In this document: positions 9,484 through 42,794 of the stretch, one piece after another
How positions within the stretch are numbered: position 1 is the stretch's first letter
How the letters are laid out: each line of letters opens with the position of its first letter
Virus record (IMG/VR): IMGVR_UViG_3300033076_001181
Coordinates: 14,362 to 78,361 of that record
Source: a virus
Taxonomy: Duplodnaviria > Caudoviricetes
DNA length: 64,000 nt
Direction: 5' to 3' (one strand)
Notes under the pieces: model-generated
Seen by the model: only the letters and a program-made list of their open reading frames with translations
Told to the model about the DNA's origin: nothing
Databases searched by the model: none
Position numbers and translations under genes: made by a program

Positions 9484-9495
9484 TTTTATTTTATT

Positions 9496-10179: not shown

Positions 10180-10185
10180 ATACTG

Positions 10186-12552: not shown

Positions 12553-12553
12553 A

Positions 12554-14956: not shown

Positions 14957-14963
14957 ATAACCT

Positions 14964-14993
14964 AATATAATAAAATTATCCTATCAAGCCAAT
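14964..14993 (-). promoter_or_regulatory. Class I promoter with ATG 5 nt after TATATTAG
   Basis: ATTGGC-N18-TATATTAGGTTATATG. Confidence 0.75.
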
Positions 14994-15431
14994 ATATTCT
15001 AGAGCATCTATAAATTCTCTCTCATCAAAATGTTGAATAGTAGTCATATCCATTCTATACTCATAGAATTTGCCTGGTTGTTTTGGGATTGGGTATTTTT
15101 CTTTTTCTTCTTCAGTTACAGGAACTGCTTTAACAGCTGACCATTTCCACTCCTTGGCATTAGTACCATTGGCGAATACCATTCCTTGCTTAGGTTCATT
15201 AATAGTTTGTGGTAACCATATTAACCCTGTTGATTCATCTTTCCAAGCTAAATCTCTATACAATTCAGGCAATGAAGACATTTGTTCAGTATAGAACTCA
15301 CTTCCTTCTTTCATTAAACTATTAGTCCAATATCCACAAGATAAAGACATCCAGTTAGTTATTTCAGGTGTGACCTGTGTTTCATAACACAAGTCACCTC
15401 CTGATTTAGGGCACATTATAATTTTATCCAT
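14976..15431 (-). CDS. Hypothetical protein in the glycosyltransferase block
   Basis: 151-aa ORF with N-terminal Cys residues. Confidence 0.75.
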   Translation of the reverse strand: MDKIIMCPKSGGDLCYETQVTPEITNWMSLSCGYWTNSLMKEGSEFYTEQMSSLPELYRDLAWKDESTGLIWLPQTINEPKQGMVFANGTNAKEWKWSAVKAVPVTEEEKEKYPIPKQPGKFYEYRMDMTTIQHFDEREFIDALEYIGLIG

Positions 15432-16734: not shown

Positions 16735-16740
16735 AACTGT

Positions 16741-21173: not shown

Positions 21174-21434
21174 TTAATAATCTCCATACATGTTAAACTT
21201 CTTTGGTGGTGGAGGTGGTGCTTTTTCAACCACCTTACTATCAATAGCATATAACTCACCTTTTATAGGTGATAATCTGAAGTCACATGGTTGTTGAACT
21301 TCTTGAAAATAACCCTCTAATGCATCTGTTAATGAAGGGTATACATAAGTAGGATCACTAAGCAATGCCCACCTATCTGAAGGTGGGACACGCTTAGCAA
21401 TCAACACGACTTCTTCCTTAACTTCGGTAGCCAT
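21174..21434 (-). CDS. Hypothetical protein
   Basis: 86-aa ORF coupled to the groEL stop. Confidence 0.7.
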   Translation of the reverse strand: MATEVKEEVVLIAKRVPPSDRWALLSDPTYVYPSLTDALEGYFQEVQQPCDFRLSPIKGELYAIDSKVVEKAPPPPPKKFNMYGDY

Positions 21435-23050
21435 TAGAACATACCTCCCATTCCGCCCATCATATCATCCTGCTTTTTATCTTCAGGCTTGTCTACGACT
21501 GTGCATTCGGTTAATAAAATTGTTCCTGCTACTGAAGCGGCGTTTTCGATCGCGGTCCTCGTGACTTTCGTTGGATCAATAATACCAGCTTCTTTCATGT
21601 TTACCATCTTATCAGAAGTGATATTGTAACCTTTCCAATTGTCTTTGCCTGTTAATTTATTAATTAACCCAAATGACTCTTGGTCAGTATAACCGGCGTT
21701 AGATAAAATCTTCATAAATGGTGACGCACATGCTTTATAAACAATGTTTCCACCTGTTGTATGACGATTTACAATTGCTTCACGAGCATAAATTAAAGCA
21801 GCACCACCACCTGGAACAATACCTTCTTCAATTGCAGCTTTAGTTGCTTGAAGTGCATCGTCTACGCGATCTTTCTTTTCTTTAACTTCTGTTTCGGTAT
21901 TACCACCTACGTGAATAATTGCTACTCCTCCGATAAATTTCGCCAGTCTTTCTTGGAGTTTTTCTTTTTCAAAGGGCGAATTTGCTTTTTCGATTTGTTG
22001 CTGTAGCTCTTCAATACGTGTTTCAATTCGTTCAGGTTGTCCTTTTCCATCAATAATGGTTGTTTGATCTTTTGTTACTGTTACAACTCGGGCTTCACCA
22101 AACCATTTTGAATCAAAACGATCTAATTTCATACCCTTATCAGTACTAAATACCTCACCACCTGTTAAAAGTGCGATATCTTCTAAAATCAATTTTCTAC
22201 GATCACCAAAGTCAGGAGCTTTAACTGCTGCTACTTTAAGTGTACCTCTCATTTTATTTACAATCAATGTTGCTAATGCTTCACCTTCAATATCCTCAGC
22301 AATGATAAACAATGGTCTACCTTGAGATGATACTGCCTCTAGCAATGGTAGCAATTCTTTAATCGCTGTAAATTTCTTATCTGCGATAAGGATAAGTGGA
22401 TTTTCTAATGTACAAGACATTGAGTTGTTGTCTGTTACAAAGAAATGTGATTTGTAACCACGATCAAATTGCATACCTTCTACTGTTTCAAGATAAGTAT
22501 CGCCTGACTTTGATTCCTCAATATAAACAACTCCCTCACGACCTACTTTTTGCATTGCAGTTGCAATCAATTTTCCTACTTCAGGATCGTTATTTGCAGA
22601 AATTGTAGCTACTTGTTCCAATTGATCTTCAGAACTGATGTCTTGTGAAATGCTTTTACGTAATTCTGTTACTACATCTTTAACTGCAGCATCAATTTCA
22701 CGCTTAATAGTTACAGCGTTAACTCCATTGTTTAATGATGTTAAACCTTCTTTAACCATGTTTTGAGCCAACAATGTTGAAGTAGTTGTACCATCACCTG
22801 CACCATCAGCAGTTTTAATAGCTGCTTGTTTAACCATTTGTACACCCAATTCTTCAATTGGATCTTCAAGTGAGATACTTTTTGCTACTGTTACTCCATC
22901 TTTTGTTGATTGTGGGTAACCACCTTGATTTGCTATAACCACATTACGACCATTTGGACCTAATGTAGACGTAACTGCGTTTGCTAATTTGTCAATACCA
23001 GTTACGAGTTTTTTCCTTGCTTCAGGACCGAATTCGATAATTTTACTCAT
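21434..23050 (-). CDS. groEL: Chaperonin GroEL
   Basis: TLGPNGRNV, TKDGVTVA, GDGTTT, EGMQFDRG, ERLAK, GIVPGGG and GGM tail. Confidence 0.98.
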   Translation of the reverse strand: MSKIIEFGPEARKKLVTGIDKLANAVTSTLGPNGRNVVIANQGGYPQSTKDGVTVAKSISLEDPIEELGVQMVKQAAIKTADGAGDGTTTSTLLAQNMVKEGLTSLNNGVNAVTIKREIDAAVKDVVTELRKSISQDISSEDQLEQVATISANNDPEVGKLIATAMQKVGREGVVYIEESKSGDTYLETVEGMQFDRGYKSHFFVTDNNSMSCTLENPLILIADKKFTAIKELLPLLEAVSSQGRPLFIIAEDIEGEALATLIVNKMRGTLKVAAVKAPDFGDRRKLILEDIALLTGGEVFSTDKGMKLDRFDSKWFGEARVVTVTKDQTTIIDGKGQPERIETRIEELQQQIEKANSPFEKEKLQERLAKFIGGVAIIHVGGNTETEVKEKKDRVDDALQATKAAIEEGIVPGGGAALIYAREAIVNRHTTGGNIVYKACASPFMKILSNAGYTDQESFGLINKLTGKDNWKGYNITSDKMVNMKEAGIIDPTKVTRTAIENAASVAGTILLTECTVVDKPEDKKQDDMMGGMGGMF

Positions 23051-25167: not shown

Positions 25168-27756
25168 TTAAAAACTAAAAAATTTATTAACATTAGCGTT
25201 TAGTGGTGGAAATTCCCACTTAAGATCTTTATAAAGTTCCTTTAATTTGTTTAATAATAATGATTCAAAGATCTCATCTATATCAATATATGTTTTAACA
25301 AATTTTTCTATTTCATCAGGAACCTTAGCATTTGGTAAACCAACTGTTTCTAATTTATATGGGTTGGCTTTTAAGTTAATGATAAAAATCTTATCACCTT
25401 CAATAATAGATTCATATTGTTTATCTAATTTTTTAAACCTTAATAAATCATTATAGCGAACAGCTGCTTTAGTATTAGATGGTGCTTTCAATTTAAATGT
25501 ACTAAACATTTCACCTGCTCTAGGAGTGTTTCTATATGAGGCAATTTGTTTTACTCCTGTTGGTTTACCTAGTTCTCGTGGGTCTAATGTTTTAACTAAC
25601 TTATAGAAGTTAATAATTGAATTGTCTAATTCATGTTTTGGCTTACCAAATAAAATATCTTTAATAAATTGTTCACCAAACGATTTGAATCGTTTATTCA
25701 TATTAGACTTCATCAACTCTAGACCTTTCATGTCTAGTTCTTCAACAGCAACACCTTCCTTATTAGTAACATACATTGCGTATCTTCTCTTACCTGTAAC
25801 TAAGATACCAGTAGCAATTACTTCTTGTTTTAACTGAAAGTAATGTTTAGAAGCATCAATGTTAAATAAATTCTTACACATTGTGTTAAGATTATTATTT
25901 GCTTCATCTTGTATCTCAATTGCCATTTCTAGAATGTACTTGTCTTTCTCTTCTTTAGTGGCGTTAGGATATCTATGTCTTAATAAATCACCTAATTCAA
26001 TATACATAGAGTCAGTATCACTAATACAAATGTATTGTTTGTCTTCTGATTTTAGCTCAGTATTTAGTTTATCATTAGTGAATATGATTGATTCTTGAGT
26101 CAATCTTTGACCTGTGTTTGTAATAGCAGCACTACAAATTAATTGACCATCAGTATATCTCCATCCACTTTTAGCGAATGTACCATACATAGCGTTTTGC
26201 AAGATCTTAAATGCATGTTGGAACAAATCATATAATTTATAGTTAGCCCAATCTTCTTCTTTACCTGCTTTCTTCTTTAGACCTCTATAATGTTCTCGTT
26301 TTTCAAACCAACCTTCTAAAATCTTAGCAACTACACTTTGTTCATCTGTTCTAAACATTGCCCCAGAAGCAGATATAGTGAATTTATTATCTTCAATAAT
26401 CTTAATAAGTTCACCTATAGTAATCTTAGCCTGTGATGTTGTATAGTTCTTTTTATTTACTTTTTCAACAACAATTACTTCTTTAGGGTCACGTTCTTTA
26501 AGTTTTTCTAAACTATGGTTTTGTTCATAGGTTGGTCTATGATCAACTTTAATTCTACCAACTAATGTTTCAATACCTAAATTAAGTGATTTAATAATTG
26601 AAGGATATAGTGAAGTAAAGTCTAAGTCAATAACATCAAAGTACAAACCAGGTATTGGTTCTAATAGATAACCACCAGCATATGTTTCCTTAAATGATTT
26701 TAATGCTTGATTATGAGTTGTTGGTTTATTAGGTGAAATAATACCTTCACGTTTAAGATGCTTTAGAATAGCTCCTTCATTCATAACTGTATTCCAATAA
26801 ATTGATTCATATGGAATATTACAGATATGAGAAATCATAATTGTTAAGTTGATAAACTTAAGTTTATCTTCTAACGCTTCAATAATTTCAACGTCTCGTA
26901 AGTTATAGTCAATAAAAGTATCTATATCATCTCTGAATAGTGTATTTAAGTTACCTTCATATTCAATCTTACCTAAACCAACATATTTAGCTCCAATATC
27001 ACCTAATTTATATGATGGTTCTTCTTTCATGATGTACTTTTTATGTAACAACATGTAATCTAAACAATTCACACCTCCAATAGTGATTTGTGATTCACCA
27101 TTAAATTCTCGTTGTGATACTTTCTTAAGTGGGGATAAACGGGCGGTCTCTGCTTCACCGACAACATTCATAAGTCTATGGTAAATGTACGGTATATCGA
27201 AGTAATCTGAGTTATAACCGACTAATATTGTTGGGTCTAGTTCCTCAAATTTAGATAAGAATTTACCTATTAACTCACGTTCATTTTTACAAGGAATGAT
27301 ATGTTTGCTGTTCTGATTCGTTTCTTGGATTTGTCCTGATGGGTCAACTACAAAACATATTTTTTGTTTAGTAGTCACGTCTATTAGAGCAATAGATGTG
27401 ATTGGCATAGGAGCTTGTTGAATATAGTAAGGTGTTAATGCACCTCCCATTTCAATCTCAATATCTATATAAACTATATTATGCCAAGCAGGAACAGTAT
27501 CTTCTTCTTTATAATATAACTCTCGAAGTATTAGTAGATTTTTATCAATATCCTTTTCTAACAAGTCAGGATCATTTTTATCTAATTTTTTAGTAGGTAT
27601 AGCCCAACCGCCAGTTAGAACTGGTCTAGCACCTTCTTGATATTCATTTACACGTTTCCAATAAGTTGGTTGGAATTGGAACTCTAACCAGCCTTGTTTA
27701 TCATCTCGTAAATGATAAGTGTAAGTTGAGAAATCATAATAAATACTTTGATACAT
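25168..27756 (-). CDS. Family B DNA polymerase with 3'-5' exonuclease
   Basis: YIDIE, GYNSDYFDIPY, DYNLRDV, DLDFTSLYPS, KILQNAMYG, DTDS. Confidence 0.97.
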   Translation of the reverse strand: MYQSIYYDFSTYTYHLRDDKQGWLEFQFQPTYWKRVNEYQEGARPVLTGGWAIPTKKLDKNDPDLLEKDIDKNLLILRELYYKEEDTVPAWHNIVYIDIEIEMGGALTPYYIQQAPMPITSIALIDVTTKQKICFVVDPSGQIQETNQNSKHIIPCKNERELIGKFLSKFEELDPTILVGYNSDYFDIPYIYHRLMNVVGEAETARLSPLKKVSQREFNGESQITIGGVNCLDYMLLHKKYIMKEEPSYKLGDIGAKYVGLGKIEYEGNLNTLFRDDIDTFIDYNLRDVEIIEALEDKLKFINLTIMISHICNIPYESIYWNTVMNEGAILKHLKREGIISPNKPTTHNQALKSFKETYAGGYLLEPIPGLYFDVIDLDFTSLYPSIIKSLNLGIETLVGRIKVDHRPTYEQNHSLEKLKERDPKEVIVVEKVNKKNYTTSQAKITIGELIKIIEDNKFTISASGAMFRTDEQSVVAKILEGWFEKREHYRGLKKKAGKEEDWANYKLYDLFQHAFKILQNAMYGTFAKSGWRYTDGQLICSAAITNTGQRLTQESIIFTNDKLNTELKSEDKQYICISDTDSMYIELGDLLRHRYPNATKEEKDKYILEMAIEIQDEANNNLNTMCKNLFNIDASKHYFQLKQEVIATGILVTGKRRYAMYVTNKEGVAVEELDMKGLELMKSNMNKRFKSFGEQFIKDILFGKPKHELDNSIINFYKLVKTLDPRELGKPTGVKQIASYRNTPRAGEMFSTFKLKAPSNTKAAVRYNDLLRFKKLDKQYESIIEGDKIFIINLKANPYKLETVGLPNAKVPDEIEKFVKTYIDIDEIFESLLLNKLKELYKDLKWEFPPLNANVNKFFSF

Positions 27757-27776
27757 AACCTTTTTAATTTTAATTT

Positions 27777-28127
27777 TTAACCACTTACTAACTGCACTTC
27801 AACATAATTGTCATCCACATATCCATCCTCTACATAATATAATTTAACTGTTGTTCTTCCAGAAACTGGACTAAGTCTAGCTGGGAGTAATGATTTTAAA
27901 TTATTTATTAATTCTACATATGGATTACTATAATTAGGAGACACATACACTATTCCTGGGTCAGTATTAGGAATAGATTTTTGATTAGGATTTAAATTTA
28001 TTAAATCTGAGTATCTATTACTATTATTAGGTGATATATATACTTTTCCAGGGTTAGTATTGGGGATAGATTTTTGATTAGGATTACTATCAATTAATTT
28101 TTTATATCTATCCCCAAATGTAGCCAT
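27777..28127 (-). CDS. Hypothetical protein with internal 31-aa tandem repeat
   Basis: NPNQKSIPNT(N/D)PG.VY.SPN twice; ATATTTAT at 28139-28146. Confidence 0.65.
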   Translation of the reverse strand: MATFGDRYKKLIDSNPNQKSIPNTNPGKVYISPNNSNRYSDLINLNPNQKSIPNTDPGIVYVSPNYSNPYVELINNLKSLLPARLSPVSGRTTVKLYYVEDGYVDDNYVEVQLVSG

Positions 28128-28146
28128 TTATTTTATTGATAAATAT

Positions 28147-28635
28147 TTATTTATCAAGGAACTGCTTTAAATTAGGACGAAAGTAATTTATGTTTTTCAT
28201 TACTTTACGATCCCGAGTTCTATAAACAATCCAATAGTCACCTACTTTTTCATAATGACATGGTTCACCTTGTTCTTGTTCACGTACTTTAACTGTTTCT
28301 TTAGCTTCAGCTTCGTCTTTACAAGCTTTAGACATATTACTTGCTTGAACTTCTGCGTACGCGGGTTGAATTTTGTCTTTTAATCCGTGCAGCATGGCTC
28401 CGTTTCCTAGCGACACATATGTAATATCGCACAAGGCGTCTAAGACCTCTACTATGTTTCCTGTTTCGCATGCATGTTTATATTCTTCTAGTTCTTCTAA
28501 TATAAAATTGTAAACAAATTCCCATTCTTTTTTAGCTGGGATTGTTGGTTCATAATTGTTTGGTTTACCCATTGTAGCGTTAAATGTTTCTACTTCGCTA
28601 ATAAATGGGACATAATTTTCTTTAGATTGAGACAT
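28147..28635 (-). CDS. MazG/PRA-PH-like nucleoside triphosphate pyrophosphohydrolase
   Basis: ILEELEEY..VEVLDALCDITYV..SNMSK. Confidence 0.85.
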   Translation of the reverse strand: MSQSKENYVPFISEVETFNATMGKPNNYEPTIPAKKEWEFVYNFILEELEEYKHACETGNIVEVLDALCDITYVSLGNGAMLHGLKDKIQPAYAEVQASNMSKACKDEAEAKETVKVREQEQGEPCHYEKVGDYWIVYRTRDRKVMKNINYFRPNLKQFLDK

Positions 28636-28763
28636 GACTATTGACTATTATTTATTATTTCTTTAAGTTTTAACATATAATCATAATATGGATCTTCACC
28701 ATGAACATGAACTAAACGCTCATAAATCCATTCCAAATGATTTCTATCAGATTGAGACATGAC
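28624..28763 (+). repeat. 15-bp direct repeat AGATTGAGACATGAC (28624-28638 and 28749-28763)
   Basis: Read directly; both copies contain an ATG TCT CAA TCT start on the minus strand. Confidence 0.85.
28638..28760 (-). CDS. Hypothetical 40-aa protein
   Basis: Manual translation MSQSDRNHLEWIYERLVHVHGEDPYYDYMLKLKEIINNSQ. Confidence 0.55.
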   Translation of the reverse strand: MSQSDRNHLEWIYERLVHVHGEDPYYDYMLKLKEIINNSQ

Positions 28764-29442
28764 CATTATTTATTTTAAGTGAATCAAAAAATTCTTTACG
28801 TGCTAAGTTATCATTTTCCATAAACACACCTGATGCTTTAGTAGTAACCATAGCAGCACCTTGATGTTTAATACCACGACAACTTACACAGTTGTGAGTT
28901 GCAACTACAGTAACAATAACACCATGGTTGCCTTCACAAACCTTATTTACTGCTTGATGAATAGCTGCTGTTAATTGTTCTTGGATAGCACCTCTACGAC
29001 CAAAATGTTCTACAATACGATTTAGTTTTGATAAACCAATTACTCGGCCTTCTTTACCTGCAATGTAACCAATATGTACTACACCTCGAATTGTTTGGTG
29101 ATGATGCGAACACATTGAAGTTAATTGAATATTACGCTCAATAATTACTCCATCATAACCATCTGACGGAAATGAAGTAATATCAGTAAATCCATTGTAA
29201 CGACCAGCCCACAAATCATTAACATATGCTTTAGCTACACGACGAGGTGTATCAGCAGAGTTAGGATCGTTTTGCCAATCACATTTTAGTGCTGTTAGGA
29301 AATTACCAAAATGTACTGTTGCTTCTTCAATCATTTGTTGCTTTTCTTCATCTGTCAATGGACGATCTAAAGCTGAACCGTTTGCGAGACCATTCTTAAC
29401 GCATTCGATATCATTGTGAAATTTTTTTCTATTATTTTCCAT
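28747..29442 (-). CDS. folE: GTP cyclohydrolase I
   Basis: DTPRRVAK, SMCSHH, VIGLSKLNRIV, QEQLT, HNCVSCRG. Confidence 0.96.
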   Translation of the reverse strand: MENNRKKFHNDIECVKNGLANGSALDRPLTDEEKQQMIEEATVHFGNFLTALKCDWQNDPNSADTPRRVAKAYVNDLWAGRYNGFTDITSFPSDGYDGVIIERNIQLTSMCSHHHQTIRGVVHIGYIAGKEGRVIGLSKLNRIVEHFGRRGAIQEQLTAAIHQAVNKVCEGNHGVIVTVVATHNCVSCRGIKHQGAAMVTTKASGVFMENDNLARKEFFDSLKINNGHVSI

Positions 29443-29449
29443 ATAACCT

Positions 29450-29479
29450 AATATAATAAATTATTTTTAAATTGCCAAT
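29450..29479 (-). promoter_or_regulatory. Class I promoter with ATG 5 nt after TATATTAG
   Basis: ATTGGC-N18-TATATTAGGTTATATG. Confidence 0.75.
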
Positions 29480-29976
29480 ATATATGGCAAACTTCTTTTT
29501 TGATGATGTTCATCATCCATTCCATATCCAACTACCCACTCATCAGTTATTTCAAATCCATAAATTGAACCTACTGGTAAGTCAATTTCATTGATTGCTC
29601 GTTTAATTAGAGTAACTATTTGAACTGATGCAGCTCCTTCATAAATGAAATGTTTACGCAATGTATCCATTGTAACTCCTGAGTCATAGATGTCATCTAT
29701 AAGGTAGACATGGTTATCTTGCATCTCTAATGACTCACGAAGTTTAATTTCTAAATCACCTCGTTCTTGACCCTCATATGACTTTACTTTTATAAAGTCA
29801 CATTTTGGATCAAGTGAGGATAACTTTTTAACTAATTCACTATAAAACATAAAACCACCATTCAATACACAAATTAGAATAATTGGTCGTTTTTCTGATT
29901 TATGACGATTAAAAATTTGGGTTGCGATTTCATCAATTCGCTTTTCAATTTGGTTTTGATTAAATAATACTTTCAT
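29467..29976 (-). CDS. hpt: Hypoxanthine/guanine phosphoribosyltransferase-like
   Basis: ICVLNGGFMF, VKSY, LIDDIYDSGVT (PRPP loop), WVVGYGMD. Confidence 0.9.
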   Translation of the reverse strand: MKVLFNQNQIEKRIDEIATQIFNRHKSEKRPIILICVLNGGFMFYSELVKKLSSLDPKCDFIKVKSYEGQERGDLEIKLRESLEMQDNHVYLIDDIYDSGVTMDTLRKHFIYEGAASVQIVTLIKRAINEIDLPVGSIYGFEITDEWVVGYGMDDEHHQKRSLPYILAI

Positions 29977-30235
29977 ATAACTCTTTGATTGGATGTAACC
30001 CTGGGTATGATTTCTGTTTGCCTTTATAAGACATTATTACATGTGGATAAAAATCTACTGCAAATTCGTCTTCTAATTCAGTTGCCTCATTAAGCTTAAC
30101 TAATTTAAATTTTAATTTGTTAGCAATTTCTTCTACCATAGGCATGGCTACTTTGCAGCCACCGCACCAATCGGCGTAAAAGAGTACTATAGTATTCTCT
30201 TTTTGTAGTGTTTCAGTTAATAGTTGTTTATTCAT
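29960..30235 (-). CDS. Thioredoxin (WCGGC)
   Basis: FYADWCGGC and downstream cis-Pro FYP. Confidence 0.85.
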   Translation of the reverse strand: MNKQLLTETLQKENTIVLFYADWCGGCKVAMPMVEEIANKLKFKLVKLNEATELEDEFAVDFYPHVIMSYKGKQKSYPGLHPIKELYESII

Positions 30236-31017
30236 TATACTTCTCGTTTTGTATCAAATGCTATTATATGTTCTCTACCTGTGAAATTATAACCATTATC
30301 TCTACAAAAATCCATCACCATCGGATACACTCTAATTAATTCATCTCTTGTATCACCAGGAGGCATTAACCATGTTTTACGTTTTGGAATATCCATTTCA
30401 ACTCTAAACGCTTCAATCTCATTCCATGCTTCAGGCATTTCAATAGGATTACAAACTGGTTTGTAATGATAGTCACCATGGTATTCAATCATTTTCTTAA
30501 TCGCGTCTTTATTAAGGCGGTATTTGTTATGTTGGTCCACCATTTTTTGGTCTGCTTTCTTACCTTGCGGTGTATCAGTCCCAATTGCAGGCACACTATT
30601 ACTGAACTTAGGAGACAAAGATACCAAACCGATTGGAAAGTCAGTTTCAATAAAATGAGAACCTTCTGTTTCAATTGTAATAAATAAGCCACGTTTTTCA
30701 GCTAAATGAGTTAATTCGTTTACTAGATCAGGATGCATAGTAGGTGAACCACCTGTTAACATCATTTCTCTAATATATGGGTTATTGTCATACATAGCAA
30801 TAATATCATTGAATGTGTATTTTCCTTTTTCAGGATGAATACTAGTATACCATGAATCACACCACCCACCTTCACCAAACCAACATCTATGAGTACATCC
30901 TGTAGTTCTAATAACTACTGTAGGCATTCCAGCTCTACTACCTTCTGATTGTACAGCTGTATATAGCTCTATAATTGGAAGTGTTTTATTATAATCTTCT
31001 ATTCTACCTGGTTTCAT
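30235..31017 (-). CDS. queE: 7-carboxy-7-deazaguanine synthase (radical SAM)
   Basis: ELYTAVQSEG..G.P..IRTTGC..C..CDS, LTGGSP, ITIETEG, SLSPK. Confidence 0.92.
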   Translation of the reverse strand: MKPGRIEDYNKTLPIIELYTAVQSEGSRAGMPTVVIRTTGCTHRCWFGEGGWCDSWYTSIHPEKGKYTFNDIIAMYDNNPYIREMMLTGGSPTMHPDLVNELTHLAEKRGLFITIETEGSHFIETDFPIGLVSLSPKFSNSVPAIGTDTPQGKKADQKMVDQHNKYRLNKDAIKKMIEYHGDYHYKPVCNPIEMPEAWNEIEAFRVEMDIPKRKTWLMPPGDTRDELIRVYPMVMDFCRDNGYNFTGREHIIAFDTKREV

Positions 31018-31502
31018 ATTTCCTCGTAAATTGAACTGTTATTATCATTTTCAAAACACTCTACTTTAATACATTTACAACGACCAGCATCAGTTTTAGA
31101 TAAAACATCATTAAAATGTTCATATACCATTCTAGCAGCACTTTCTGCTCCAATTTTATCCATGATAACTAACTTACATAGCCCTTCCATCTGCATTGTT
31201 TGGAACAAATCCAAATATGGATCATCTTTTTCAATCAACATTGTATGATCCCATTTATCATCCATCCAAGCTTTCAAACCATTACCTTGAGGTGCAGGTT
31301 TAAATCCACCATAGTCAACAATCCAATTCATATCATCCAATTGTTTTTCAACATCTGGTTCAACACTTGCAAACCATACTTTAAATTTTAAAGCATAACC
31401 ATGTAATAATTGACAGTGTGAGTGTTGTGCTTTCCATTGTCTGATTGCTACTGAATAGTTTTCAAATAATTTAGTTGATATATATCTTGTTTTAGTTTCC
31501 AT
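31014..31502 (-). CDS. queD: 6-carboxy-5,6,7,8-tetrahydropterin synthase
   Basis: SHCQLLHGY, WIVDYG, WDHTML, SAE, VECFEN. Confidence 0.9.
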   Translation of the reverse strand: METKTRYISTKLFENYSVAIRQWKAQHSHCQLLHGYALKFKVWFASVEPDVEKQLDDMNWIVDYGGFKPAPQGNGLKAWMDDKWDHTMLIEKDDPYLDLFQTMQMEGLCKLVIMDKIGAESAARMVYEHFNDVLSKTDAGRCKCIKVECFENDNNSSIYEEI

Positions 31503-31746
31503 AATTTAGCCAGTCTATAATTTGATTAAATGATTTAAGTCCTGTAAAACGTCTTACTTCTTGTCCATTTTCTACTAATATAACAGTAGGAACACTACGA
31601 ACATTTGCTGCTGTTAAAATAGCTGGGTCAACATAGTCAATGTTTTGTTTACGAACAGGTATTTGTTTGGCAACATCTTCCATAATTGGACCTAATGTTT
31701 GACATGGGTTGCACCAATTTGCTGTGTAATAATATAATTCTTTCAT
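31492..31746 (-). CDS. Thioredoxin (WCNPC)
   Basis: TANWCNPC, VRSVPT. Confidence 0.9.
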   Translation of the reverse strand: MKELYYYTANWCNPCQTLGPIMEDVAKQIPVRKQNIDYVDPAILTAANVRSVPTVILVENGQEVRRFTGLKSFNQIIDWLNYGN

Positions 31747-32049
31747 ACTAATTCCTCCAATATACCCAAACCTTCACTAGCTACTAACACAGTAGCTGCT
31801 GCTGGGATATTAATGAATAATAATAAATAACCTACAATTCTCAAAGCTGATTTAGCAAAGCTTATCTGTTGGTGTTTTTTAGGATTCGGATGTTCCATTG
31901 TTTTCAGTTTGTTGAGTTTCCATTTGTTGTTTTAACATAGCCATAAACTTACGTTCCATAACTAATTGATTTTTAGCGATAACAGCATTACGCTTAGCCA
32001 TTCGCTTGTTGTGAGCCTTTTTACCCCCACGTTTTCTTGATACTGGCAT
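31743..32049 (-). CDS. Two small ORFs: 51-aa membrane protein (31743-31898) and 56-aa basic protein (31879-32049)
   Basis: Manual translation MEHPNPKKHQQISFAKSALRIVG.. and MPVSRKRGGKKAHNKR.. Confidence 0.55.
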
Positions 32050-32053
32050 AATT

Positions 32054-32938
32054 TTATTTATTGTGATTATTTAAAATTGTTTCTACATGTTTAACTACTG
32101 TCTCCCAACTTACAGGACCACTTTCATCAGCATAACTGCAAGGGTCTGGTTTTCCAAGTTTCATAAACGCTTCAACTCGTTCTACAGACGATGCTGATTT
32201 ATAATCTGAGTACCATTTACCTCTTACTCCTGGGAATTCAGCTGTTTCTGGTTTGTTATTATGTGGCCAAAAGATTGGCTTATAAGATGTATTAGTGCGT
32301 GCATATACCTTGTTAAAATCAAGACCTAAGCACTCGCAACAACTGTCACCATCTTGTAAGATAGAGTATTTATCTCCATTTAAATACGGTGTATAGTGAT
32401 ATACTTTTTCAGCTCCCCAATTACCTGCTTTGAATGCTTCAAAATCGATATCTCTAAATTCTTGACGACAATCAGGATAGATAGCATGATCACCAGCATG
32501 AATACCCATTGCAATAGCACATTCAGTATTCTTTTGTTCAGCAATTGATAATGCAACTGCTTGAATAATAGAACTAAATATTTTATTACGATTTGGTACT
32601 ACTGTTGCTTTCATATTTTCTTCAGCATAGTGTCCTTCAGGTACTTCATCACCTCCAGTTACTAGAGCTGAGTTTAATAGTTGTTGTAAACCATCTAATT
32701 TGATTACTTGATGTTTTACTTTAGGAAATTTTTCATCCCATACTGGTTTATCAGTTTTTGTTAAATTATTTTCATTAATATATTTAACTAAATCTTTAGC
32801 ACGCTCTAATTCTACATTATGTTTTTGTCCATAATCAAATGATAATGCTGTAACTTCATAGCCATTGGCAAGTAGATGAAGCAATAGTGTGGAGCTATCC
32901 ATTCCTCCACTTAGTGATAATACTGCTTGTTTATTCAT
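32054..32938 (-). CDS. queC: 7-cyano-7-deazaguanine (preQ0) synthase
   Basis: LSLSGGMDSS, FDYGQKH, TVVPNRN, HAGDHAIYPDCR, TSY..S..ERVEAF. Confidence 0.96.
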   Translation of the reverse strand: MNKQAVLSLSGGMDSSTLLLHLLANGYEVTALSFDYGQKHNVELERAKDLVKYINENNLTKTDKPVWDEKFPKVKHQVIKLDGLQQLLNSALVTGGDEVPEGHYAEENMKATVVPNRNKIFSSIIQAVALSIAEQKNTECAIAMGIHAGDHAIYPDCRQEFRDIDFEAFKAGNWGAEKVYHYTPYLNGDKYSILQDGDSCCECLGLDFNKVYARTNTSYKPIFWPHNNKPETAEFPGVRGKWYSDYKSASSVERVEAFMKLGKPDPCSYADESGPVSWETVVKHVETILNNHNK

Positions 32939-33188
32939 ATTTTTTATATAATTTAGTAATCATTTCAACTTCTTCATTACTCATTTGATAAAACTTTGAA
33001 GATAAGTTAATCAACATACCATGAAATTCATTTTCTAATGATGATGTAGTTGGTGGGATATCATAACCTTCTGGTTTGTCATCTATGTAAGCATCTTCTT
33101 TTAACCATTCAACCATTAATTTTTTATCACGATGGCCCATTTCATTATAGACCTCCTCTAAATCTAAATCAATTCTAATATAACTCAT
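32931..33188 (-). CDS. Hypothetical protein
   Basis: 85-aa ORF between the TGT-like gene and queC. Confidence 0.65.
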   Translation of the reverse strand: MSYIRIDLDLEEVYNEMGHRDKKLMVEWLKEDAYIDDKPEGYDIPPTTSSLENEFHGMLINLSSKFYQMSNEEVEMITKLYKKYE

Positions 33189-33193
33189 AACTC

Positions 33194-33991
33194 TTATTGT
33201 TTTATACCGTTAATTTTTTTAAATGTAAATAAATTGTGATAAATTAATGGAAAATGAGGAGCCAAATCATCATAAGTCATATTCATTGTTTCATCAATTT
33301 TAATTTTAGGTTTAGTTAATAGACCATTTTTAGTGTATTCTAAACCTTCAATGCCAGCCATTATAGGATTTGATGTATCAATTGTTTCTACAAATGGCAT
33401 ATAGTGATAGAAATTAAATTCTTGTGGTGCGGCGCATCCTAACAAATGTACTCTGTCATTAGTTTCAATAACTTTATCTTTAAACAACTTACTAATTACA
33501 GCTACACGACCCATTGAAGCAGCAATTGCTGTAATTGGATGTGGAAAATGTTCTTGATAGTAATTAGCACCATATGAGAATGCAATCTTTTTATATCCTA
33601 ACATCTTATATTTAGTATAACACTCAGCTGCTTCTTCAATACTTTTAGCTTGAACAACTGCTACTTTAGTTGTATAGTAAGGCAATTTAATTCTAGCCCA
33701 TTCAGCAGCATTTTCTAAAGATGCTTCCATATCCTGCCATACATCAGGAACAATAAATTCATTTGGTTCAAAATATTCAACCCAATGTAATAAACGATCT
33801 GTATCATAAGCATGTCCTAGTTCATGTAAACTATTATCCATGATGATATAACGATCATTTTCTTTAGCCCATTTAAAATAATTTAAATAGTCCTCATTCT
33901 GATCTAGCAAATGAGGTAAACAATAATCATAGTGATTAAATGTTGGAGAGCTCTTAATTAGAGCAACTGGAACTTCGTGTGATACTTTCAT
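33194..33991 (-). CDS. TGT-fold transglycosylase-like protein (DpdA-like)
   Basis: IIMDNS, VPDV, AVVQ, VHLLG, IDTSNP in TGT barrel order; no C-terminal Zn site; heads the que cluster. Confidence 0.7.
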   Translation of the reverse strand: MKVSHEVPVALIKSSPTFNHYDYCLPHLLDQNEDYLNYFKWAKENDRYIIMDNSLHELGHAYDTDRLLHWVEYFEPNEFIVPDVWQDMEASLENAAEWARIKLPYYTTKVAVVQAKSIEEAAECYTKYKMLGYKKIAFSYGANYYQEHFPHPITAIAASMGRVAVISKLFKDKVIETNDRVHLLGCAAPQEFNFYHYMPFVETIDTSNPIMAGIEGLEYTKNGLLTKPKIKIDETMNMTYDDLAPHFPLIYHNLFTFKKINGIKQ

Positions 33992-34000
33992 AACTGATTT

Positions 34001-34030
34001 AATATAAATATGCTTTTACTTATTGCAAAA
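34001..34030 (-). promoter_or_regulatory. Class I promoter (TTTTGC variant) overlapping ATATTTAT
   Basis: TTTTGC-N18-TATATT; ATATTTAT at 34004-34011. Confidence 0.65.
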
Positions 34031-34037
34031 CTAATTC

Positions 34038-34562
34038 TTAGAATGGTTCTTTTAAAGTATTTTGTCGTTCAATCCATTTAGGATATTGTTTGATAATTTC
34101 TTCAACAGTACCTTCAGCTACTTCATAAACAAATTGCTTGACCTGTTCTTTACGCCCACTGAAATGATATTGGAGACTATATAATAAACTATCCATTCTA
34201 TCTTTTTCATCACGTTCAAAATCTTTTCTTAGATTATCAAATCGTCTTTTATAGTCTCTATAAATTTCCATTTCAGCATCTTTTTTGAACTCATGTGATT
34301 TATCACTATTGCGGACTTCAACAATTTCTTCAGCCATCCACCAATATTCATAATTTAGATATTGGGCGTACGGTGAATAATCAAAGTCACCATTTTTTAG
34401 TTTCTCATCAATACGAGCTCTATCCTTTAATGATTTATGAGTTGGATATCGTCTATGCCAATAATAAACATTAAACTTAGCCATTTTAGGTGGTTTAGGA
34501 GGAGCTGGATCACATGTACTTAGTGGGTGATACTCTCTTAAAACTTCTTCAATTGTAACCAT
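34038..34562 (-). CDS. Hypothetical protein
   Basis: 174-aa ORF in a co-oriented run. Confidence 0.7.
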   Translation of the reverse strand: MVTIEEVLREYHPLSTCDPAPPKPPKMAKFNVYYWHRRYPTHKSLKDRARIDEKLKNGDFDYSPYAQYLNYEYWWMAEEIVEVRNSDKSHEFKKDAEMEIYRDYKRRFDNLRKDFERDEKDRMDSLLYSLQYHFSGRKEQVKQFVYEVAEGTVEEIIKQYPKWIERQNTLKEPF

Positions 34563-34852
34563 TATGCTTCTACTGTTTGTAATACTTCTTCTACTAATTC
34601 TAAAACCAAATCATCTATTTCAGTCATTTCTCTGAAACGCTCTATATTAAATGATGGTTCAGCTATCATCCCACTTGGGAATACAATGTCTGGGTTGTGA
34701 ATTTCTTCTAGATGCAAACCAACACCATGTTTATACTCTTCAATTCCTCTAATAACATATGCGTTACCTTTTAGAGGTCGATTGGGAACAGATTCTAATG
34801 TGCGTGGCTCCCAAATATCATTTATACATTCTACTATTGCGCCTACTTTCAT
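34562..34852 (-). CDS. Hypothetical protein
   Basis: Start refined to MKVGAIV; the track's TTG start lies inside the promoter. Confidence 0.7.
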   Translation of the reverse strand: MKVGAIVECINDIWEPRTLESVPNRPLKGNAYVIRGIEEYKHGVGLHLEEIHNPDIVFPSGMIAEPSFNIERFREMTEIDDLVLELVEEVLQTVEA

Positions 34853-34859
34853 ATGGTTA

Positions 34860-34889
34860 AATATAACAAAGAATGGCCCGAAGGCCAAA
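34860..34889 (-). promoter_or_regulatory. Class I promoter embedded in a UUCG hairpin
   Basis: TTTGGC-N18-TATATTTAACCATATG; TGGCC-TTCG-GGCCA-TTCTTT. Confidence 0.78.
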
Positions 34890-34915
34890 CTTTAAGTACA
34901 ATATGTTATGATATT

Positions 34916-35128
34916 TTATTTATCTTCATGGATTGGATTATCAGGAAATAGAATATCCATGACTGCGTGAACATCAAATTTAACTCCTAATTGTTGAAGT
35001 GCCTTTAATGTATCCATGATACCGTTTTGATATTGTGAGGGAGTATTTGTATCTTTACCTGGGTAATCAAATCCCAATTCTTTTAGTACTTCTTCTTTGA
35101 TGATCTGTTTTAGTTCTGAGCGTTTCAT
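34916..35128 (-). CDS. Hypothetical protein (MKRSELKQIIKEE N-terminus)
   Basis: 70-aa ORF; ATATTTAT motif near 35147-35154. Confidence 0.6.
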   Translation of the reverse strand: MKRSELKQIIKEEVLKELGFDYPGKDTNTPSQYQNGIMDTLKALQQLGVKFDVHAVMDILFPDNPIHEDK

Positions 35129-35155
35129 TTTTAGCAATAATTTATTATAAATATA

Positions 35156-36877
35156 TTATCCCTCACAACTCACACAATCAGATAGTCGTTGTAAATTATC
35201 TCCTCTTAATACTGATTCAGTACGTAGGTAGTATAATGTTTTAACTCCTGTCTTATGAGCTTCCTTATGTACTTGACTAATCCACTTTGGTGTGTCATTT
35301 GGATCAAAACATAAGTTTAATGAAATTGCTTGATCAACATATTCTTGTCTAATAGCATTTTGTCTTACAATTTCTAACTGGTTGATTTCTTTAAATGTTA
35401 AGAACACTTCTTTTTCTTCATCAGTTAAAATATAAGACGGAACATTGATTACTGATCCTTGATCTTTAAGTATTTGATCCCAAACACTATCAATGTTGTA
35501 TCCTTTTGACTCAAGTAATTGTTCTAATACTTTATTACGTTTAATGAATACACCTTTTGCTGTTTTCAAATTATAAACGTTAGCAGGTATAGGTTCAATT
35601 GATGGGGACACACCTCCTGAGATATGAGCGTTTGATACTGTAGGTGCGATTGCTAAGTGATGAGTATGTCTCATACCTGTACCTTTACACCATTCTGGTT
35701 CACCATATAATTCTGCTTGATCACGAGATGCTTTTAGAGCGCCTTTTTCAATAAAGTCAAACATCATTCTAGTGTAAGCACTCGCTTGAATACCTACAAA
35801 CGGTAAATTCTTTTGTTGTAAGAATGTATGCCAACCTAAAACACCAATTCCAATTGCTCTACCTTTAGTAGCTGAACGAACTGTGTTTTCCATGAATTTG
35901 ATGTTTTTAGCTCTATCAATAAATTCTTGTAATACACCTTCTAGGAACCAACAAGTTATTTCAGGTAATGTCATTCCATTTTCAAATGTATAATCTTTCC
36001 ATTCATCCCAACGAGCTAAATTTAAAGACGACAAACAACAAATAAATGAGTGTAATTCGTCTGTATATAAGGCAATCTCAGAACAGATGTTAGTCATTGA
36101 TACATGTAAGTTATTTTTCTTATATGCTTCAGGATTAGCATTGTTAATGTTATCTTCAAACATTAAATAGGGTTCACCTGTTTCTAAACGTGTCTTAAGA
36201 ATTTCACCCCACAATTTTAATGACTTAGGATCTTTATTATCCAAATCATTCATAAACTTATCATCAATAACAATACATTGATGTAAATTCAAACATTGAC
36301 GATTAACATCACCTTTTGGTCTACGAATTTGTAAAAACTCTTCAATATCTGGGTGATGGATACTTAAGTTAACTGATGCTGCTCCTCTACGAACACTACC
36401 TTGGTTAGTAGCTAAAATAGTAGAATCATAAATTTTACACCATGGAACTACACCTTCTGATACTCCATTGTCTTTAATTGCTTTACCTCGGCCTCTAATG
36501 CGAGATACACCAATACCTACTCCACCACCTTGAGATGATAGTCTCATTAATTCAGAGTTAGCATCCGCAATACCTTCAATACTATCACCAACATCAATAC
36601 CAAAACATGAAATAGGCATTCCACGTTCTGTACCTAGGTTTGATAATACAGGTGATGCTAAGCATAACCAGTTTTTAACTATTGCTTCATAAAAGAATGG
36701 TTGTAAATCTTTTCGTCTTAAACGACGTGCTGCTGATTTACTTACTCTCTTATAAGCATCAAATACATCTTCATCAGGTAGTAAATATCCCTTAGATATC
36801 ATACTAACTGCTATTTCATCCATCCATTCAGGATAGTGTTTTCCTTTAATCCAATTTGTTGTGTCTACTGCGCTCAT
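35156..36877 (-). CDS. nrdA: Class I ribonucleotide reductase alpha subunit (no ATP cone)
   Basis: SPVLSN, ISCF, GGGVG, NICSEI, CCLSSLNL, AIAPT, LYYLR, C-term CxxC. Confidence 0.96.
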   Translation of the reverse strand: MSAVDTTNWIKGKHYPEWMDEIAVSMISKGYLLPDEDVFDAYKRVSKSAARRLRRKDLQPFFYEAIVKNWLCLASPVLSNLGTERGMPISCFGIDVGDSIEGIADANSELMRLSSQGGGVGIGVSRIRGRGKAIKDNGVSEGVVPWCKIYDSTILATNQGSVRRGAASVNLSIHHPDIEEFLQIRRPKGDVNRQCLNLHQCIVIDDKFMNDLDNKDPKSLKLWGEILKTRLETGEPYLMFEDNINNANPEAYKKNNLHVSMTNICSEIALYTDELHSFICCLSSLNLARWDEWKDYTFENGMTLPEITCWFLEGVLQEFIDRAKNIKFMENTVRSATKGRAIGIGVLGWHTFLQQKNLPFVGIQASAYTRMMFDFIEKGALKASRDQAELYGEPEWCKGTGMRHTHHLAIAPTVSNAHISGGVSPSIEPIPANVYNLKTAKGVFIKRNKVLEQLLESKGYNIDSVWDQILKDQGSVINVPSYILTDEEKEVFLTFKEINQLEIVRQNAIRQEYVDQAISLNLCFDPNDTPKWISQVHKEAHKTGVKTLYYLRTESVLRGDNLQRLSDCVSCEG

Positions 36878-36886
36878 TTTTATTTT

Positions 36887-37837
36887 TTATAAATCATCCC
36901 AATCTGCTGTTGATTTTGAATAACTTGTTACTCGTCCAGCAAAGAAATCTTGATGTGTTTTACCTGATGTTAAATGACCAAACCACTCAATTTGTTTTAA
37001 CAAACCTGGGTCAATATCATTATATATTGCATTATAACCTAATTCTGCCATTTTCTCGTTAGCACGTGCTTTAATGAAATTCTTTAATTGACTAGTATTC
37101 AACCCATCAATATCTCCCATTTCAAATGCTTTATCAATAAAATCAAATTCTAATTGTACTGATAATTGACATGCTTCAGCTACTTTATTTCTTAATTCAG
37201 CTGTATTTAGTTCAGGTTGTTCTTCAAGTAGTGTTTTGAATAACCAACATCCTGCTTTAGAATGTAATGATTCATCTCTAACACTCCATTCAACAATTTG
37301 ACCTGTTCCTTTCATTAAGTTTCTCAATTGGAAACTCATTAATATAGCAAACGAACTAAACAAATTTACACCCTCAGTGAATGCTGAGAATATAGCTAAT
37401 GATAATGCTCTTTCCTCTATTGTTTCGCCTGGTGTTTCAACTAAGCGATCAATTTTAGCTTTTGATACTTCGTCCTCTAAGAATGCTTTAAAATTATCTA
37501 AACCTAATTCTTCATTTAAACGAGCATATGCCTCAGCATGTATTGATTCAAAATCAGCAAATACACGAGCCATTGCTTGTATTTCAGGCTTTGGAAACCA
37601 TACTGATACTTTAGTTGACCAATAATCGTTTACATGTACTTCTGTTTGAGCAAATGACTTTAATATGTTTCCAATTAAATTCTTTTCTGGCTCTGTTAAT
37701 TTTAATTTCCAATCGTTCAAATCTGAAGCGAGTGGAACTTCGTCTGCTAGCCAATGTGCTCTATGTTGATCTTTGTAAAAATCAAAAGCTGTTTGGTACT
37801 CAAACGGTTTATAGTAATTTCTAACGTCTGTAATCAT
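36887..37837 (-). CDS. nrdB: Class Ia ribonucleotide reductase beta subunit
   Basis: W..DEV, EVHV.DY, ESIHAEAY, EGV.LFSSF, RDESLH, DFF. Confidence 0.96.
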   Translation of the reverse strand: MITDVRNYYKPFEYQTAFDFYKDQHRAHWLADEVPLASDLNDWKLKLTEPEKNLIGNILKSFAQTEVHVNDYWSTKVSVWFPKPEIQAMARVFADFESIHAEAYARLNEELGLDNFKAFLEDEVSKAKIDRLVETPGETIEERALSLAIFSAFTEGVNLFSSFAILMSFQLRNLMKGTGQIVEWSVRDESLHSKAGCWLFKTLLEEQPELNTAELRNKVAEACQLSVQLEFDFIDKAFEMGDIDGLNTSQLKNFIKARANEKMAELGYNAIYNDIDPGLLKQIEWFGHLTSGKTHQDFFAGRVTSYSKSTADWDDL

Positions 37838-42350: not shown

Positions 42351-42794
42351 TTATAGCTCTATAATCTTAAACACCTTGGTGTTTAATTGTTTTAACTCAT
42401 TATGTTGAGTTAATAAAATACTGTTTCTATAGTGTTGCCAATCTACTCTATAATTTATATCAACTACTCCTCTGTTTAATGATTTGATTAATTCATTTAG
42501 AGCGTTTATAGTATAAAGTGTATTGGTTTCTTTTTTACGATGAACTAAAATTGTGTTCTCAGGTATTTCATTAATATTACCTTGATCGACATTGTAAGTG
42601 ACAACATATTCGTTTGTGCTTTTTACAAATAACACAAACATTTTATTATACATGATAGTGTAAGACCTAGAAATATCTTCTACGAGAATGTCTAATCCAT
42701 CAACACTTGTAAATGTGCAAAATAACTTGTTGTTCAAATCTTTAATATTGTCAATATTCAGATCATACATATCATAATTTGGTTTAAAAGTCAT
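42351..42794 (-). CDS. Hypothetical protein
   Basis: 147-aa ORF overlapping the PolA-like gene end. Confidence 0.75.
   Translation of the reverse strand: MTFKPNYDMYDLNIDNIKDLNNKLFCTFTSVDGLDILVEDISRSYTIMYNKMFVLFVKSTNEYVVTYNVDQGNINEIPENTILVHRKKETNTLYTINALNELIKSLNRGVVDINYRVDWQHYRNSILLTQHNELKQLNTKVFKIIEL

Follow-up and report, generated by a model that had tools for sequence, protein, structure and literature searches.

How does a phage come to carry 7-deazaguanine in place of guanine, and does the base enter the DNA during polymerisation or by exchange afterwards? Three phages replace every guanine by 7-deazaguanine, and the mechanism is contested between a modified-dGTP route proposed in 2019 and a post-replicative action of the transglycosylase DpdA3 proposed in 2023. 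The same question is raised by a gene block (positions 25168-37837) in a 64,000-nucleotide (nt) stretch of a virus (Duplodnaviria; Caudoviricetes), positions 14,362 to 78,361 of IMG/VR record IMGVR_UViG_3300033076_001181, hereafter the window. In this block, genes for 7-deazaguanine synthesis lie within a replication and nucleotide-metabolism block. An initial annotation of the window had read the block by analogy with the Z-genome system: 7-cyano-7-deazaguanine (preQ0) would be converted at the nucleotide level by a phosphoribosyltransferase (PRTase, Hpt) or a transglycosylase-like enzyme, reduced by ribonucleotide reductase (RNR) and thioredoxin (Trx) and incorporated by a family B DNA polymerase (PolB), while a MazG-like enzyme removed (d)GTP. 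As a simpler alternative, it had suggested that Hpt salvages released guanine. The deazaguanine system, the plausibility of near-total guanine replacement and the salvage alternative were all supported by our analysis, and the Z-genome-like pre-replicative chain was not. With moderate confidence, we read the block as a DpdA3 module of a phage of the group of Flavobacterium phage immuto, in which base exchange would take place on DNA and Hpt would recycle guanine.

The source contig is an IMG/VR virus of 78,361 bases with a CheckV completeness of ~47%, a G+C content of ~31% and nearly every gene on the minus strand. Genes were called as open reading frames (ORFs) and then searched with Pfam, NCBIfam and PHROGs profiles. 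On the minus strand the order is nrdB, nrdA, three ORFs without a family match, the DpdA3-type transglycosylase gene, an ORF of 85 amino acids (aa), queC, two tiny ORFs, trx, queD, queE, a second trx, hpt, folE, the MazG-like hydrolase gene, a 116-aa ORF and polB; every gene named in the initial annotation, from nrdB and nrdA to polB, was recovered in its place by ORF calls, Pfam and NCBIfam. The reading frames from the first trx through hpt overlap by 1-17 nt, which suggests that these genes form one operon. The same synteny was seen in dozens of IMG/VR and metagenome contigs, so the gene order is not accidental; these relatives share their synteny by common descent and are not independent observations.

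The transglycosylase-like protein (33194..33991, minus strand, 265 aa) has a single, weak Pfam match, to DUF6610, and matches phrog_19058 (E 1e-39). With immuto DpdA3 it shares 35% identity (E 2e-58), and with gp056 of Campylobacter phage CP220, a hypothetical protein, 32% over 99% of its length; CP220 relatives carry homologues too. An AlphaFold2 model built from 81 diverse homologues reached a predicted local distance difference test score (pLDDT) of 97.6, and the top 50 Foldseek matches to this model were all tRNA-guanine transglycosylases (TGTs), with probability 1.0 and query TM-scores (TMq) of 0.58-0.66. In the 81-sequence alignment, D52 (in a DNS motif), H182, L184, G185 and D205 (DTSNP) were invariant, and D83 (PD) and L183 were nearly invariant. 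In a ten-sequence alignment D52, D83, Q114, H182-L-L-G and D205 were invariant, Q114 only there. The conserved residues align by hhalign with the DSG, HGFG and DSS motifs of a classical Queuovirinae DpdA, an equivalence defined by motif order and hhalign and not by residue-level superposition. By homology and modelled fold, the window protein is a member of the DpdA3-type TGT-fold enzymes, a minimal TIM barrel predicted to exchange G for 7-deazaguanine.

The DpdA3 family is large: clustering at 90% identity gives 3,064 clusters, clustering at 50% leaves 1,496 representatives, and IMG/VR has at least 584 loci. A scan of IMG/VR with a single DpdA3 protein gave no match, and an alignment-based scan was required. 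Two metagenomic proteins, P0203 and P0212, are fusions of DpdA3 with a PurN-like (DpdN-like) formyltransferase domain and join base exchange and preQ1 formylation in one polypeptide. We considered such fusions (to homing-endonuclease modules, the DpdN-like formyltransferase or DUF3310) as a guide to the substrate, and they are silent on DNA versus nucleotide. Isoelectric point as a hint of DNA binding was likewise uninformative (median 5.6 for DpdA3 and 5.1 for the classical DpdA of Vibrio phage VpKK5, both acidic). The idea that the missing Zn/Ins8 subdomain points to a small substrate was dropped, since classical phage DpdAs are equally small (307 aa).

Cui et al. (2023), who named the DpdA3 subfamily, reported no detectable dG in CP220, phiST and immuto (PMC10516641). 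The replacing base is dADG (2'-deoxy-7-amido-7-deazaguanosine) in CP220, 2'-deoxy-7-deazaguanine (dDG) in Cellulophaga phage phiST and formyl-preQ1 in immuto, and a post-replicative origin was proposed for all such modifications (PMC10516641). Because the transglycosylase of the window belongs to DpdA3, near-total replacement of G is a fair prediction for this phage, and a plausible one by homology to immuto, CP220 and phiST.

All of the genes for making the base are encoded together, and FolE, QueD, QueE and QueC were confirmed by Pfam and NCBIfam. FolE (GTP cyclohydrolase I, the first step of the pathway; 28747..29442, minus strand) matches PF01227 (E 1e-41) and NCBIfam models at about E 1e-40, all below their curated cut-offs. 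QueD (6-carboxytetrahydropterin synthase; 31014..31502, minus strand) matches PF01242 (E 3.1e-12) and, weakly, TIGR03367. QueE, the radical S-adenosylmethionine 7-carboxy-7-deazaguanine (CDG) synthase (30235..31017, minus strand), matches PF04055 and several NCBIfam QueE models, all below cut-offs, and its gene is 83% identical in nucleotides to immuto queE over 300 nt. The QueC-like preQ0 synthase (32054..32938, minus strand, 294 aa; PF06508, E 3.9e-37) is 62.6% identical to immuto QueC. Its C-terminal part is long and, by eye, has no obvious CxxCxxC zinc motif such as canonical QueC would have. The identity to immuto QueC is nevertheless 63%, and that enzyme must be functional, having to make preQ0 for QueF. 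Neither QueF nor DpdN turned up in the contig or in relatives of 93-100% completeness. With no QueF found and a QueC so similar to the preQ0-making enzyme of immuto, preQ0 or 7-amido-7-deazaguanine (ADG) is the expected end product.

With a DpdA3 homologue and the pathway genes both present, the deazaguanine DNA system that the initial annotation had placed around the que genes is borne out. That the que genes merely boost a queuosine precursor for host tRNA, leaving the DNA unmodified, was raised by Hutinet et al. (2019) for phages with preQ0 genes and no DpdA (PMC6884629). Here the DpdA3 homologue is present, and 3 of the 3 DpdA3 phages tested are fully modified, which makes the chance of a purely tRNA-directed pathway close to negligible.

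Hpt (29467..29976, minus strand; PF00156, E 7e-20) is the enzyme on which a pre-replicative chain would turn. It scores 130.3 bits against TIGR01203, under the 150-bit equivalog cut-off, and by sequence it is a diverged member of the hypoxanthine-guanine PRTases (HGPRTs), an assignment at the family level as a 6-oxopurine PRTase. Its PDB relatives are all HGPRTs (aligned to 1HGX, 4QRI and 3O7M). The loop that binds phosphoribosyl pyrophosphate and the LIDDIYDSG motif are retained, and the catalytic Asp of DDIxDSG to which the initial annotation had drawn attention is indeed kept, together with the other 6-oxopurine residues (Lys of TLIKR, the aromatic residue in W-VGYGMD, Asp and Arg); they are also kept in nearly all of 40 phage orthologues. 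The start of hpt is overlapped by 17 nt by the second trx, and this Trx-PRTase pair is conserved in relatives.

To place Hpt in its context we used a neighbour table of 80 IMG/VR loci whose DpdA3 is 52-66% identical to that of the window. Wherever the locus reached FolE (44 of 44 loci, of shared ancestry), the same strand also encoded a PRTase, as a rule no more than 80 nt from FolE. The PRTase was of the HGPRT type, as in the window, in 36 of these loci and of a small Gpt type, as in immuto, in the other 8, and no locus had both. The two types can barely be aligned, and 4Z1O, 4TRB and 1VDM match the small Gpt-type phage PRTase. The interchange, as judged from these sequences, is a non-orthologous replacement in one slot.

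The association with FolE extends to other phages. In immuto and phiST the Gpt-like PRTase has a gene of its own; in VpKK5 and in Pseudomonas phage Baskent_P4_1 it is fused to the N-terminus of FolE. VpKK5 belongs to the Queuovirinae, and its classical DpdA is the gene adjoining the PRTase-FolE fusion. In Stenotrophomonas and Sphingomonas phages, the PRTase match falls under the annotated GTP cyclohydrolase gene. CP220 has no PRTase, though it is fully substituted. From these comparisons the PRTase tracks FolE and not complete replacement, because it is found in all 44 loci and in FolE fusions beside a classical DpdA, and is absent from CP220. The fused GTP cyclohydrolase is ~300 aa long (VpKK5 gp32, L091:4998-5900; Baskent_P4_1, L090:4971-5864), and its N-terminal Gpt-like domain of ~115 aa carries the motifs RGG...DDIxDSG...WVVFPWE. 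An unannotated ORF of Baskent_P4_1 (L090:5747-6784), between folE and the polymerase processivity factor, is 55% identical to VpKK5 DpdA and, by this similarity, is a missed dpdA gene. A full-text literature search found no paper discussing the PRTase or its fusion to FolE.

What HGPRT-type and Gpt-type enzymes have in common is that they phosphoribosylate guanine. Every exchange releases one guanine and costs one GTP-derived base, so a guanine salvage loop is the simplest account, and recycling of freed guanine is most likely the role of Hpt. The comparative evidence and the retained residues both favour this alternative, which the initial annotation had offered second.

The first choice of the initial annotation would have Hpt join preQ0, CDG or ADG to phosphoribosyl pyrophosphate (PRPP), after which kinases, RNR and Trx would yield a modified deoxynucleoside triphosphate (dNTP) for PolB, with the MazG-like enzyme destroying dGTP. 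Complete replacement is known in DpdA3 phages, and Hpt lies within the que operon, its gene overlapping a thioredoxin gene. A modified dGTP used by the polymerase was earlier proposed for Campylobacter phages by Crippen et al. (2019), as cited in PMC6884629. A validated precedent is also available in TubE, a CDG-PRPP transferase encoded in a cluster with FolE, QueD and QueE (PMC6112128). Against such a route, however, CP220 is fully replaced without a PRTase, and in Queuovirinae phages the PRTase is fused to FolE in the company of a classical DpdA. The Hpt of the window is a canonical HGPRT that has kept the N7-directed Asp, and it falls outside the Gpt/4Z1O type with which TubE was compared. 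The swap of HGPRT and Gpt in one slot fits an activity on guanine that both share. In sister phages dUTPase/dCTP deaminase (DCD) displaces the MazG-like gene, no HD-domain dGTPase was found in the contig, and DpdA3 would be left without a role. We consider this route highly unlikely, and a nucleotide-level step by a PRTase that is tied to FolE even beside a classical DpdA, and that CP220 lacks, is not supported.

Hpt could also serve general purine salvage of degraded host nucleic acid, with no link to deazaguanine and a position that is historical. Large phages often carry nucleotide-salvage genes, the active site of Hpt is canonical, and the gene sits in a nucleotide-metabolism block with RNR, Trx and ThyA. 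However, cultured phages hardly ever carry HGPRT-type genes: no more than 18 records matched, mostly unannotated short records from phage collections and faecal viromes, plus one Salmonella genome record. Moreover, all 44 loci have a PRTase beside FolE, one type replacing the other non-orthologously in the slot, and in other phage lineages it is physically fused to FolE. We regard general salvage as unlikely and prefer recycling of the guanine released by DpdA3.

The MazG-like enzyme (28147..28635, minus strand) is an all-alpha pyrophosphohydrolase of the phosphoribosyl-ATP pyrophosphohydrolase (PRA-PH)/MazG kind that acts on nucleoside triphosphates (PF01503, E 2.5e-9; phrog_671, E 4e-28). 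It is 79% identical to the nucleoside triphosphate pyrophosphohydrolase (NTP-PPase) of immuto; its Atlas neighbours are all PRA-PH, and its closest 120 relatives are 82-99% identical, except for one at 66%, a sign of very strong conservation but too little divergence to be informative. A sequence search of the PDB gave nothing. Across the 38 loci extending past FolE, the slot after FolE held the MazG-like gene in 27 and a trimeric dUTPase/DCD-fold gene in 11, with no locus having both and none having neither. The choice follows the RNR class: MazG-like to DCD stood at 16:0 with class I RNR and at 0:11 with class II. No PF01503 match was found in four DCD-type records, two of them 93-100% complete, and no PF00692 match in five MazG-type records, the complete immuto genome included. 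The contig of the window has ThyA, and no dUTPase was found in it. No HD domain above the Pfam cut-off was found in the contig, in the near-complete relatives or in immuto, which has one weak sub-threshold match.

Because dUTPase/DCD displaces the MazG-like gene in sister phages, the MazG-like enzyme is most likely, by this comparison of gene content, a dUTPase/dCTPase analogue with a pyrimidine job rather than a dGTPase. The removal of (d)GTP that had been assigned to it found no support, given this swap and the lack of an HD-type dGTPase among the genomes just named. Co-occurrence of mazG and que genes had been suggested as a check; inside the lineage it is uninformative, every member examined carrying both. 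The wider MazG-like family is also frequent in phages without DpdA3, for example Microbacterium phages. What the present analysis adds is that HGPRT and Gpt PRTases replace each other and that MazG-like and dUTPase genes exclude each other.

RNR and the polymerase had been taken as steps of the chain. NrdB, the small subunit of a class I RNR (36887..37837, minus strand), matches PF00268 (E 2.3e-64), and NrdA, the large subunit (35156..36877, minus strand), matches PF02867 (E 4.5e-95) and PF00317. The RNR class differs among sublineages, with class II instead of class I in sister phages. The replicase is PolB in the window (25168..27756, minus strand; PF00136 and PF03104) and PolA in immuto, and the immuto group is reported to use PolA, PolB or PolC besides a divergent PolA (preprint 10.1101/2024.04.26.591309). 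A 425-aa protein of the window without a Pfam match (42784-44061) probably corresponds to the divPolA1 of that preprint. The que/dpdA cluster of the Queuovirinae also adjoins a polymerase. Since the polymerase family varies and the Queuovirinae cluster too lies beside a polymerase, the adjacency of PolB is non-specific, a matter of co-expression with replication rather than of a dedicated incorporation step. The first thioredoxin (31492..31746, minus strand; PF00085, E 7.7e-13) has a WCNPC motif and overlaps the start of queD, and the second (29960..30235, minus strand; PF00085, E 3.4e-14) has a WCGGC motif. Both are conserved inside the cluster of relatives, and by default we read them as serving RNR. 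RNR, Trx and PolB serve replication and nucleotide supply in general and, though co-expressed with the pathway, are not parts of it; with an RNR class that varies between sublineages and a polymerase family that is swappable within the group, a role of RNR and PolB as dedicated steps is not supported.

In the scheme that we favour, FolE, QueD, QueE and QueC would make a preQ0-level base from GTP, as their family membership predicts. While the phage DNA is replicating, or shortly thereafter, DpdA3 would exchange its guanine for that base and, judging from immuto, CP220 and phiST, would probably replace most or all of the G. Comparative genomics suggests that Hpt would then turn the freed guanine, with PRPP, into GMP, which host kinases would raise to GTP to feed FolE and so close the guanine loop. 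The MazG-like enzyme would do the job of the dUTPase/dCTP deaminase of sister phages, that is, pyrimidine dNTP sanitation and the supply of dUMP for ThyA.

Several points weigh against this scheme. We know of no biochemical precedent for a post-replicative enzyme that gives complete replacement. The 44 loci with a PRTase beside FolE share ancestry and do not count as 44 independent events, and the substrate of the MazG-like enzyme is deduced from gene displacement only. With the contig ~47% complete, QueF, a kinase or a dGTPase could sit in the missing half. TubE shows that a PRTase encoded beside FolE, QueD and QueE can act on CDG itself. Finally, DpdA3 action on DNA has never been demonstrated, heterologous tests in E. 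coli having failed, and the ADG nucleoside reported in CP220-infected cells hints at the nucleoside/nucleotide pool (PMC10516641).

These last two observations bear on a further possibility, that DpdA3 exchanges guanine on dGMP or dGTP, so that the polymerase sees the modified dNTP only, with Hpt still recycling guanine. All three DpdA3 phages show 100% replacement, and dGTP would be depleted without a separate dGTPase. An AAA_28 P-loop kinase, annotated as thymidylate kinase, lies beside or near DpdA3 in CP220 (gp057, L003:12819-13361) and in immuto (gene 68, L001:3885-4409); the two are 32% identical, and the family occurs elsewhere in four relatives of the window. On the other hand, all characterised TGT-superfamily enzymes act on polynucleotides, and in its catalytic motifs DpdA3 agrees with classical phage DpdA. 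Given the small size of the classical enzymes noted above, nothing can be concluded from the missing Zn subdomain. The AAA_28 kinase was not found in the contig of the window (~47% complete), nor in phiST, VpKK5 or Baskent_P4_1. An action on the pool is in our judgement unlikely, and we retain exchange on DNA.

Between RNR and DpdA3 lie three minus-strand ORFs of 73, 108 and 174 aa (34916-35137, 34562-34888 and 34038-34562) with no match in Pfam, NCBIfam or PHROGs. Relatives, too, have the 174-aa ORF just upstream of DpdA3, and tblastn matched it in 27 of 80 loci. Considered as a candidate partner of DpdA3, it showed no homologue in immuto or CP220 and gave no fold lead and no useful Atlas match. 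The 85-aa ORF between DpdA3 and QueC (32931..33188, minus strand) has no family match, and small ORFs fill the same gap in relatives. The 116-aa ORF between the MazG-like gene and PolB (27777..28127, minus strand) has no Pfam, NCBIfam or PHROGs match, and ORFs of ~100 aa take this gap in relatives.

On one flank the block is bordered by replication genes, encoding DnaB, a 5'-3' exonuclease, a RecA/UvsX-like protein and gp32. The opposite flank has Cpn60, a clamp-loader-like ATPase, a PD-(D/E)XK nuclease, a glycan-synthesis island, ClpP and ThyA (thymidylate synthase; 3-521, truncated by the window edge). The phage Cpn60/GroEL lies at 21434-23050, and relatives have a Cpn10-Cpn60 pair in the same place, downstream of PolB. 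The glycan-synthesis island (8569-18177) is low in GC and encodes two GT2 and two GT1-like proteins, a WavE-like protein, an FkbM methyltransferase and a HAD-nucleotidyltransferase fusion. A 4HBT-fold thioesterase homologue is found upstream of the window (contig positions 12942-13319); relatives have it within the cluster, where it separates QueE from the Trx-PRTase pair, and one is also encoded nearby in immuto. A test for under-represented palindromes and a scan for promoters and terminators gave no usable signal.

The deazaguanine module itself is of the known DpdA3 type and, as the cluster and locus counts above show, it is abundant in environmental phages. In this lineage a guanine-type PRTase always stands beside FolE, and a recycling loop of this kind may be required if base exchange is to continue across a whole genome. 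If DpdA3 did act on the pool, no TGT-fold enzyme before it would have been seen to work on free nucleotides, and DNA bases could be rewritten in a new way. Many restriction enzymes fail to cut fully deazaguanine-substituted DNA, a property of interest to phage-host biology and to DNA technology.

Among known systems, that of immuto (PMC10516641) is similar in its proteins (DpdA3 35%, QueC 63% and the MazG-like NTP-PPase 79% identical) and in its local order of QueD, QueE, PRTase, FolE and NTP-PPase, and in both phages the genes lie in a replication block. The two probably belong to the same phage group, with a genome size of ~160 kb and with Cpn60 and a divPolA1-like gene in both. In contrast to immuto, neither QueF nor DpdN was found in the window's contig or in near-complete relatives, which points to preQ0 or ADG and not to formyl-preQ1. 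The PRTase is of the Gpt type in immuto and of the HGPRT type in the window, the replicase is PolA in immuto and PolB in the window, and the AAA_28 kinase that flanks immuto DpdA3 was not found in the window's contig. CP220 (Firehammervirus) shares a DpdA3 homologue (32% identical), QueC and QueD; its dADG system, with 100% of G replaced, is that of Crippen et al. (2019), as cited in PMC10516641 and PMC6884629. In contrast to the window, CP220 has no PRTase, its genes are scattered and do not form one operon, and its DpdA3 has an HD-kinase fusion and an AAA_28 kinase as neighbours.

The dPreQ0 and 2'-deoxyarchaeosine (dG+) systems of the Queuovirinae (VpKK5; CAjan and 9g in the literature) likewise combine FolE, QueD, QueE and QueC with a small TGT-fold DpdA beside a DNA polymerase, and in VpKK5, Baskent_P4_1 and others FolE has a Gpt-like PRTase linked to it. 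Their DpdA belongs to another subfamily, with a remote profile match only, and their PRTase is a FolE-fused domain, not a separate HGPRT-type gene. Characterised Queuovirinae are partially modified, at ~25-30% of G (PMC10516641; PMC10484667). The tubercidin and toyocamycin clusters of TubE and ToyH (PMC6112128) also encode a purine PRTase with FolE, QueD and QueE; TubE joins CDG to PRPP, and its authors likened it to the Gpt-type 4Z1O of S. solfataricus (PMC6112128). The Hpt of the window differs in being of the HGPRT type, and 4Z1O (the proxy through which TubE was compared), 4TRB and 1VDM are absent from its PDB matches. The GMP reductase, PurA/PurB-like, UbiD and Nudix genes of these clusters are not in the window, and the clusters have no DpdA whereas the window has DpdA3.

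In the Z-genome system of PurZ, MazZ, DatZ and DpoZ (cyanophage S-2L and relatives), one base is completely replaced, as is predicted here. Like that system, the window encodes an NTP pyrophosphohydrolase of the all-alpha MazG type close to the pathway and polymerase genes. Unlike it, no dedicated triphosphohydrolase for the canonical dNTP was found here (no HD domain), dUTPase/DCD can take the place of the MazG-like gene, polymerase and pathway are not inherited together, and a base-exchange enzyme, DpdA3, is present.

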